Made by a program: the position numbers
Assembly: GCA_965140785.1 (NCBI GenBank)
Contig: OZ223481.1
Location: 288,001-352,000 of the forward strand
Source: an uncultured Ruficoccus sp.
GTDB taxonomy: Bacteria; Verrucomicrobiota; Verrucomicrobiia; Opitutales; Cerasicoccaceae
DNA: 64,000 nucleotides
Direction: 5' to 3'
Shown here: piece after piece, positions 18,001-21,000 of the stretch
Layout: each line of letters starts with the position of its first letter
Position numbering within the stretch: the first letter of the stretch is position 1

Positions 18001-21000
18001 CGTCGATGGCAACCCGCACATCCACTTCTTGCCCACCGAACTGACTAACAACATCACCAATATCGCCCGCAATTCGCAGATGGTGGCGATCAACAGCGCG
18101 GTTGAGGTGGACCTGACCGGGCAGGTGGCCGCCGACTCGATCCGGGGCCGCTTCTACAGCGGTATCGGCGGGATGGTGGACTTCATGCGCGGAGCCGCCC
18201 TGAGCAAAGGCGGCCTGCCCATCATCGCGCTGCCCTCTACTGCCGAGGACGGCAAGACCTCGCGCATTGTGGCGCGTTTGAGTCCGGGGGCGGGCGTAGT
18301 CGGCAGCCGGGCCGACGTGCACTTCGTCATAACCGAATTCGGCATAGCGACCTTACGCGGACGCAGTATCCGCGAGCGTACGCTCGAACTTATTCAGGTC
18401 GCCCATCCGAAGTTTCGGGATGAGCTGTTGCATTTTGCACGCGAACAGTGCTTCGTACCCGCCTATCAAAAGCTCGTGCCGCGCCCCACCCGTGAAATCG
18501 GCGGGGTGGAATTTGAGCGGGTCCGGTTGGCCAATGAAGAATTTGTACTGCGCCCGCTACACCCCTCTGACGAGCGCCGTCTGCAGGAATTTTTCTATTC
18601 GCATACGCCCGAAACCGTCCAGAAACGCTATGGTTATAACATCACCAGCATGACCCGTGAGCGGGCCCACGAGCTGGTTAGTGTCAATCAGGACAAGGAC
18701 CTGGCGCTGGGTATTTTCGAAATCAAGGGCCCGCGGCAGCGAATTCACGCGGTCGGACGCTACTATCTCGACCAGAACGAAGAATCGGCGGAGATCGCCT
18801 TTGTCGTGCGCGAGACCAAGCGCCGGCACGGCATGGGAGGGCTCTTGTTAGGCCGGATGATCGAGATCGCCCGTAAGCGGGGGCTGAGCCAGCTGTGGGC
18901 CTTTGTCTCCCGCAGCAACGACCCCATGCTTCGGCTTTTCTACAAGCACGGTGGCAAAGGCGAAGGGGTAAAGGATCAGGAAGAGATGCGCGTTATTTTT
19001 AATTTGAAAGAAGAAGCGACAGAGTCTCTCCCCTCCGGAAACGATACGTAGACAATTGCTCGCGAGGTAAGGAAAGTTCCTTATAGATATTAGTGTGATC
19101 CCTATAGATAAATGCGGTGTTGCTTGTGCAAATAGCGATATGCAAAAGGCATGCAGTAGACTAAATGTTAATAAAGGCTTGCTTTAACGTGGGTTCTGGA
19201 TAGCTGTTAATCCTCTAAACGGTATTAACCTAAGTGAAACTATGAGTATTGATAATGAATTAAAGCGTATAGAGAAAGCCGCGGAGAATCTGGCTAAGCA
19301 GAAAAAGAAGCTGATCGAGCAAAAGAAAAAAGAAAAGGCTGCTCACGCTAAATTGGACGCGGTAGTCAAGCAGAGCGGCTTCGATACGCCGAAGGAATTG
19401 GTCGAAGCGCTGATTGAAAAGTACAACATCCGGCTGCACCGCCGCCGCGCCGCCGCCGCGACCCCGTCCGGCCGCCGCAAGCGCACCAAGATCACTCCTG
19501 AGCTGCGCGACCAAGTTAAGGCCAAGCTGAAGGACAGCTCGATGAACAAGGTCTCCAAGGAGATGGAAATCAGCTACGCCGTGATCGCCAAGATCGCGAA
19601 GGGTGCCTACGACAAGGCCAAGTAACCATCCTCACGCTGGCTCCCGATTTTTCATCCGCAGGTCTTCGGCCCTGCGGATTTTTTATGGGCATTTCGCTTA
19701 ACCTCTCATGCACAATCTCGCTCATGGTGGATTAATCGAAATGCCTTTGTGCCTCGGCTGCGCGCAACGCGGGTTTTGACAACCGGCTCGGGATGGCATA
19801 GGCTATGCTAACTCTGACTCATCATGCGGCTCGTACTACCGAGATGCAGGCAGCACCTCACCCGCGAGGATGAAAACTTCCTGGCGGAGACGCTGGCTGC
19901 TTCCCCCGCCTCCCGCGAGGCTGTGGCGGAGCTTTTAGCCGATCCGCCCATGCGGGACCTGCTGTTGGACGAGAAGGAGGTTTTCCAGATCTTGCTGGAG
20001 TCGCCGCAGTCCCTGGCGGTGTCCCCGAATCTTTACTTCTACGTCCTCGTGCGCCACAGCCTGAAGGACAACGGCGTGGACGACCGCGAGCTGGCCGACT
20101 ACCTGGCCTCGCTCTTACTGGCTTACCTGATGGAGCGCCAAAGCGGCATGCACGTGCCCTATGTGGGCGAGTGCATGAGCGAGATCGCCGCTTCCGCTGG
20201 GGCGGACCGGTTCTTTCTCGTGGTTGAGCTGGCCGACCGCCTGCTCTTTCTGACCGGAATCTTTCCGGCGCATTTCGAGCATCGGCGGCAGCGGCGCGGG
20301 GCGCCTCCATTGGACTTTTATGAAAACGTCGGCGTGGCCCAGTACCGGACGGCCAGCGGACACGCTCTGGCGCGTGAGTTCTGTCTGGAGCCGATTTTTC
20401 AGGCGCTGGGCGAAGCCTTTCACGAGATCCGTCTCGGGCTCAACCGCATCGGCGACACCCTGGCCTTTACCGGCGACGACGGCCCTTCGCCGGGGCGTTA
20501 CCTGCTTAACTGATTCTGTAAATAAAGGCCTGTTTAGTGCGGTTTAAATGAAGTCGTGGCCATCGCTCCCTTAACTCTGTGTCTTCGCATCTTTGTGGTG
20601 AAAAAAAGATGAGCTACAGAGAGCACAGAGGATTTTTAAAAGTGAACATCACTGCCATGCGCGTGTTTTTCGATCTTTCCGGCCTTCCTGTTAAAAAAAT
20701 CGAAGAGGAAGCGGATTTCTTTACCAGTAAGGGGGTAAAAAAAGACCGCCCGGTTTGTTCGACCGGGCGGTCCGTGCAAAGGGTTGAGTGAAGGGTGCGC
20801 TTCGCCTACAGGCGCGGCAGCGTGAGCCCGCCGTCCACCATGATGACCTGACCGGTGGAGTACGGGAAGTCGCCGCGGGCGAGCGAGGTGACAGCCTTGC
20901 CGATGTCGTCCGGGAAGCCCCAGCGGGGCGTTACGCACAGGCCATCGGCAATGAGCTTGTCATACTTTTCCGTTACACCGGCGGTCATGTCGGTCTTGAT

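Follow-up and report, generated by a model that had tools for sequence, protein, structure and literature searches.

The window, i.e., the whole stretch of 64,000 nucleotides of the Ruficoccus contig that was analysed, contains a gene for a basic protein of 127 amino acids, whose coordinates are reported in Table 1 with those of the neighbouring features. The product contains 34 Lys and Arg residues and has a pI of 10.1, and the search of Pfam and NCBIfam disclosed no family above the cut-off (the top match being HTH_32, E-value 0.009), in agreement with the earlier note on this DNA, which described a basic protein of no Pfam class. A sequence search retrieved 39 homologs, the closest named one (90% identity) being a hypothetical protein of Ruficoccus amylovorans. 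The genome carrying the gene is 91% complete. The terminator-like hairpin is indicated by its position and not by its number, since one was found versus 1.5 in shuffled sequences. The downstream neighbour has no match in Pfam, NCBIfam or PHROG. Four genes of this genome are split across frames, that is, EamA (14917-15826), queG-like (16000-17188), acetyl-CoA hydrolase/GNAT (17179-19051) and tuf (C48:290073-291261); since the first three are whole in sister species, they are probably the outcome of indel errors in the assembly, so that single stops or frameshifts are weak evidence here. A low-GC stretch (0.42-0.59) covers positions 1-8100 of the window (about 277000-296100 of C10 in the genome) and reaches as far as a tRNA-Pro gene (8020-8097), which lies some 11 kb upstream from that of the 127-aa protein; this end is likely to be an island border.

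Table 1. Features of the locus of the 127-aa protein (positions in the window).
Feature	Position	Strand	Basis
Upstream neighbour, acetyl-CoA hydrolase/GNAT fusion (C-terminal part)	17675..19051	+	syntenic, 11 loci, two families
AT-rich region upstream of the gene, with its first 100 coding bases	19062..19341	+	GC 0.38 in 0.62 context
Core-copy gene, 127-aa basic protein	19242..19625	+	ATG start, ORF reading plus homologs
Residues 1-25, heptad stripe, putative terminal coiled-coil dimerisation site	19242..19316	+	conservation; role by analogy with TurB (PMC13141940)
Residues 37-63, helix-SG-turn-helix, putative central dimerisation site	19350..19430	+	hydrophobic patch
Residues 64-83, variable basic linker ending in conserved Arg/Lys arm	19431..19490	+	model, conservation
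Residues 84-127, three-helix homeodomain-like helix-turn-helix (Tc3/IS21/resolvase/CENP-B type)	19491..19622	+	profile matches, model fold matches
Terminator-like hairpin and T run	19654..19689	+	directly 3' of the 127-aa protein gene
Downstream neighbour, 229-aa protein	19824..20513	+	syntenic in 11 loci

The AlphaFold2 model of the protein, built on an input of 97 sequences (mean pLDDT 85), contains helices at residues 3-45, 50-61, 86-96, 101-108 and 112-120, the same two helices, linker and three-helix end that had been described before. The positions of the heptad stripe (3, 7, 10, 17 and 24) are hydrophobic in 88-100% of the 97 members, and the patch of residues 37-63 is a second one, separate from the stripe. 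The mean charge of the linker is +6.9 in the 97 members and +8.7 in the 37 members of a second set, that of MvaT being +6.0. In the model, the C-terminal helix-turn-helix (HTH) is a bundle of three helices that follows a basic arm, as in the homeodomain-like type of Tc3 and resolvases; it shows weak matches to transposase HTH families, and its fold matches also include the HTHs of GcrA, KorB and ParB type. Its recognition helix is nearly Arg-free, with residues strongly conserved inside each clade of the family. [quoted passage not shown]

The best, though weak, structural match of the N-domain is the N-domain of TurB, so that the statement that no fold match to MvaT exists does not hold as it was worded. 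The Z score of TurB (the matched structure is presumably the straight-helix R8A variant) exceeds that of rank 2 by only 0.4, which is inside the tie range of the tool, and a long helix followed by a short one is a plain fold. TurB was absent from the matches listed by Foldseek, and PDB sequences searched with a profile yielded coiled coils and not TurB. When the stretch of the second site was compared alone, MvaT and H-NS scored no higher than decoys, and in the profile-profile comparison 14 of 16 pairs failed to beat all shuffles. As regards H-NS, the best local alignments cover its central dimerisation site and are in register, though weak (probability under 2%), and a Xanthomonas-type H-NS profile gave a probability of 34%, with 6 of 300 shuffles equally high.

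MvaT, TurB and Pmr, the H-NS-family silencers of Pseudomonas, share with the 127-aa family the length (120-130 aa), the basic linker and the existence of copies on mobile elements; their N-domain is likewise formed by a long and a short helix from Met1 and aligns in register, with weak matches. However, they carry the PF22055 C-domain in place of the three-helix HTH, and the mean charge of the MvaT N-domain is -2.8 (negative in 115/117), whereas that of the 127-aa family is +1.9 (negative in 29/97) and, in the second set, +1.5 (negative in 8/37). Since its N-domain is not acidic, the family lacks the asymmetry of charge that PMC6936261 describes in H-NS, MvaT and Lsr2. TurB is also bent at D27 (PMC13141940), whereas the model of the 127-aa protein has no hinge there. 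Neither the MvaT reader domain (PF22055, the AT-pincer) nor the H-NS domain (PF00816), in whose place the model has the HTH, was matched by Pfam in the protein; the hand-shake site 1 of H-NS, made of two short N-terminal helices, is not in either model (both have the single helix 3-45), and the Q/RGR hook is not at conserved positions of the family. The absence of both reader domains indicates that the protein is not a member of the H-NS or MvaT family. A precedent is Rok of Bacillus, in which, according to PMC6936261 and PMC7710501, an N-domain predicted to be MvaT-like is combined with a helical reader of unrelated type and the charge asymmetry is weak; Rok, however, reads with a winged helix and its Q linker is neutral, whereas the HTH of the 127-aa family is wingless, its linker strongly basic and PF23159 unmatched.

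The family was retrieved with a profile searched against 1.84 billion representatives, giving 198 of them at E<=0.001. Among the best 150 of the 198, two clades were disclosed, which align over 112 columns with a probability of 99.6%; relatives of the second, among the best 80 of 166 loci, are mostly titled Opitutaceae or Opitutales. Matches were found in 81/201 order genomes with the single protein as query and in 120/201, some to the HTH only, with the second-clade profile; the earlier figure of 66 of 151 genomes is confirmed in kind, the counts of this other sample being different. In a sample of 401 genomes of the phylum, all 55 matches are inside the order, with none in 319 other genomes of further families. 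Within the 201 order genomes, the family was not found in three taxonomic families; it is kept in 7/9 genomes of 0.8-1.4 Mb belonging to one family, and it was found in 0/10 genomes of each of two other small-genome families. Most genomes have one copy, and three sister species have 2, 3 and 4 matches, as had been stated for Ruficoccus.

Across the family, the linker differs in length and the N-terminal site differs too, with the basic charge maintained. In divergent forms, a predicted beta-strand-like N-terminal segment replaces the heptad helix, or a long Pro/acidic tail is present. The tailed form occurs in one taxonomic family (L031-L036), where a low-complexity Pro/acidic tail of 330-400 aa, with a basic stretch at its end, follows the two-domain protein, and several of these genomes also have a second, divergent short homolog (L392-L394). 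In L385, L386 and L388-L390, the same HTH follows an N-terminus starting with an alternating hydrophobic, strand-like segment; this form, which we take to resemble Lsr2 in outline, had no profile match to H-NS or MvaT. In P0134, P0151 and P0145, the C-terminal HTH is duplicated or triplicated. A copy without N-domain (L341:5694-8190) follows tmRNA, an integrase and a small ORF. Anti-silencers are known among truncated homologs of silencers, and this copy is equally likely to be a truncation of that kind or a decayed gene.

The claim that the neighbours of the core copy are kept is true within families, each neighbour in the window being common to 11 loci, and not across the order, where they change (tgt/secA, fabG-like/ilvE-like, ABC transporter, recJ and others). 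No fixed target gene accompanies the family.

The genome harbors two further full copies, at C26:73704 and C48:14512-14886, both 62% identical and both already reported, and a C-terminal fragment with a stop (C26:80443), whose DNA is 86% identical to the C26 copy. The full-length extra copies of sister species adjoin phage, integrase or IS genes in 5/5 cases, as had been noted, and all 7 full-length extras of the genus are located on mobile-element DNA, in pieces of one element with the order two unknown genes, paralog, Sak4-like annealase, helicase, primase and serine recombinase; lower-GC sugar-use genes lie beside the copies of this element. One of the extras is the end of a viral-collection contig, with 100% identity over 6,372 bases. 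Around the C26 copy, a tRNA-Ser gene 5.3 kb upstream, the two element genes, an IS and a falling GC content can be observed, with no integrase in the 20 kb considered. The earlier note spoke of paralogs on mobile islands: all 7 extras of the genus are indeed on the element, but they form one branch inside the core copies (tree support 92/85, not starred; 100/99 for six of them), which points to one capture event and not seven. The paralog was not found in 10 related elements of 9 genomes outside the genus, whose slot contains HTH_17 in 5 cases (once with XRE), a sigma-type gene in 2 and an unassigned ORF in 1, and is empty in 2. The two genes heading the prophage-like element (L277:5497-7686; G000:C26:71496-73685; L373-L382) have no Pfam or PHROG family; they are sporadic in the phylum (22/301 genomes) and precede a variable regulator slot and the Sak4/helicase/primase genes.

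In the second clade, 10 extra copies of 8 genomes of a second taxonomic family were considered, with core copies assigned by their neighbours and one multi-match genome with fragments excluded: integrases, relaxase or serine recombinases adjoin 5/10, low GC or a tRNA is the only sign in 2, and 3 bear no mobile sign. A copy on a conjugative element is sister to the core copy of its host (0.995), and in two genomes the integrase-linked copies cluster with their own cores at under 0.9. Named plasmid and phage collections contained no copies of the family. Phages and islands are described in PMC7074111 as having captured silencer genes of their hosts in the case of H-NS and Lsr2, and CgpS and phage-borne hns are similar in that the mobile copy is close kin of the host's own gene (PMC7074111); they belong, however, to other protein families, and in the present case the host keeps its core copy and silencing is putative. 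Elements also carry regulators and nucleoid proteins of other kinds, so that this carriage is not specific to silencers.

The 180 bp upstream of the gene have a GC content of 0.38, which 20/1020 comparable genes (called, as for the codon percentiles, by our own script) equal or undercut; with the first 100 coding bases added, only 3/1020 are as low, in part because of A-rich Lys/Glu codons. The third-position GC of the first 35 codons is 0.40 below that of the last 45, a drop reached by 3/1161 operon-leading genes and strongest in one that, from its sequence, we take to be GroES-like. The 5' value is lower in 82/89 homologs (kin, hence not independent; proteins longer than 200 aa and loci with fewer than 150 bases upstream were excluded), with a median of -0.19 versus -0.04 in controls, -0.10 in ribosomal genes and -0.02 in neighbours. 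Codon use in the last 60 codons is ribosomal-like, at the 98th percentile when this fragment is compared with whole genes; the whole gene lies at the 82nd percentile and its paralogs at the 35th and 6th. The upstream sequence is AT-rich and poorly conserved, with no operator seen to be conserved among four sister species and no match to the sigma-70 consensus. The AT-rich 5' region is compatible with self-repression by an AT-binding protein or simply with high expression, and either one argues against a low-copy local repressor; since the GroES-like gene has the same 5' AT ramp, it may reflect high expression only.

That the genome lacks H-NS, MvaT, Lsr2 and Rok was confirmed. PF00816 matched 0/201 order genomes, whereas the E. 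coli control was recovered; the other searches covered this genome only, where no match to Lsr2 (two models), MucR, Rok or GapR was obtained, every positive control being recovered. The MvaT Pfam search gave no match, but its control was silent too, so a local full-length MvaT profile was used in its place, with nothing under E 6. The genome contains three HU/IHF genes, and 7% of its 1-kb windows are below 50% GC. The reviews consulted place silencers in Proteobacteria, Actinobacteria and Bacilli only and expect similar proteins in other bacteria (PMC11841835); no known silencer named in them uses the HTH type of the 127-aa family. A silencer or nucleoid protein of Verrucomicrobia, Opitutales or Opitutus was not found described among the papers listed for it in an open-access library, though supplementary family surveys could mention one.

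On the whole, the most likely reading, to which we give even odds, is an abundant nucleoid protein of Opitutales, H-NS/MvaT-like in action without being either, which would be a filament-forming, AT-preferring silencer and nucleoid organiser. The layout, the restriction to one lineage, the absence of the known families and the mobile copies favour the silencer reading of the earlier note, which is supported in part and is also helped by the weak resemblance, in structure and profile, to the MvaT/TurB N-domain and by the AT-rich upstream region and 5' end; an N-domain without the acidity of MvaT and a reader of a usually specific class speak against it. The two hydrophobic patches might serve as terminal and central dimerisation sites, in which case the protein would chain into filaments; the Arg-rich arm might enter narrow AT-rich minor grooves and the Arg-poor recognition helix might confer a loose specificity, so that cooperative coating or bridging would repress acquired DNA rich in AT as well as the AT-rich 5' region of the gene itself. 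The host gene has been taken repeatedly by mobile elements, and the captured copies would probably quiet the element's own genes or tune the host's copy via mixed oligomers. More tentatively, and with somewhat less than even confidence, the family might be a separate silencer class of a whole PVC order, in which an MvaT/H-NS-related oligomerisation domain is combined with a transposase-type HTH. In this class the terminal sites would be interchangeable (coiled coil or beta-strand) around a central site that is conserved, and prophages and integrative elements would have captured it repeatedly.

The strongest alternative, although an unlikely one in our judgement, is an abundant chromosome organiser that oligomerises or bridges DNA without mainly silencing foreign genes, in a role nearer to Fis, GapR or a site-directed bridger, and that is carried by elements as HU is; an abundant nucleoid protein of this non-silencing kind would account equally for the data. 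The retention in genomes of about 1 Mb, which are expected to have little foreign DNA, weighs against the silencer reading and for this one, as do the codon signals of high expression, the non-acidic N-domain, the GcrA, KorB and ParB-type fold matches and the example of pCAR1, which has HU and the nucleoid protein YejK besides an MvaT homolog. On the other hand, the only nucleoid-protein match of the N-domain is that of a silencer, the genome already has its three HU/IHF genes and some low-GC DNA with no known silencer family, and the mobile copies adjoin lower-GC cargo. Clearly less probable is an ordinary sequence-specific dimeric regulator, made of a coiled coil and an HTH, with a dispersed regulon, whose copy on the prophage-like element would be an early-operon regulator. 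The HTH class of Tc3, IstA, resolvases and CENP-B, the nearest folds, usually reads specific sequences, the recognition helix is strongly conserved within each clade, and the same slot of related elements holds excisionase-like HTH_17, XRE or sigma-type genes. Differently from Tc3, IS21 IstA, resolvases and CENP-B, the family has no catalytic domain, its HTH is joined to an oligomerisation-type N-domain and its recognition helix is Arg-poor. Against such a regulator, a ligand-sensing domain, a neighbour kept across families and a conserved operator are all missing, and a second conserved patch besides the coiled coil and a variable linker and N-terminal site with constant basic charge do not fit it. 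A non-functional family or a domesticated transposase fragment without chromosomal role, suggested by the weak transposase HTH matches, is close to excluded by conservation, since intact single copies, syntenic within families, exist in most families of the order and the two-domain pattern is maintained at 25-35% identity.

The small basic protein may thus be a candidate, as judged from its sequence, for an undescribed DNA-packing and foreign-gene-muting protein of Opitutales, and the family would extend the H-NS-like class as framed in parts of PMC11841835 and PMC7710501. A named candidate makes the silencer question testable in cultured genera. If the silencer reading is true, a new reader fold would join the list of silencers, and the assembly module of H-NS and MvaT might predate its DNA-binding domain and be more mobile than it; the protein would also be a means of approaching the large low-GC islands that these degraders of polysaccharides devote to sugar use.
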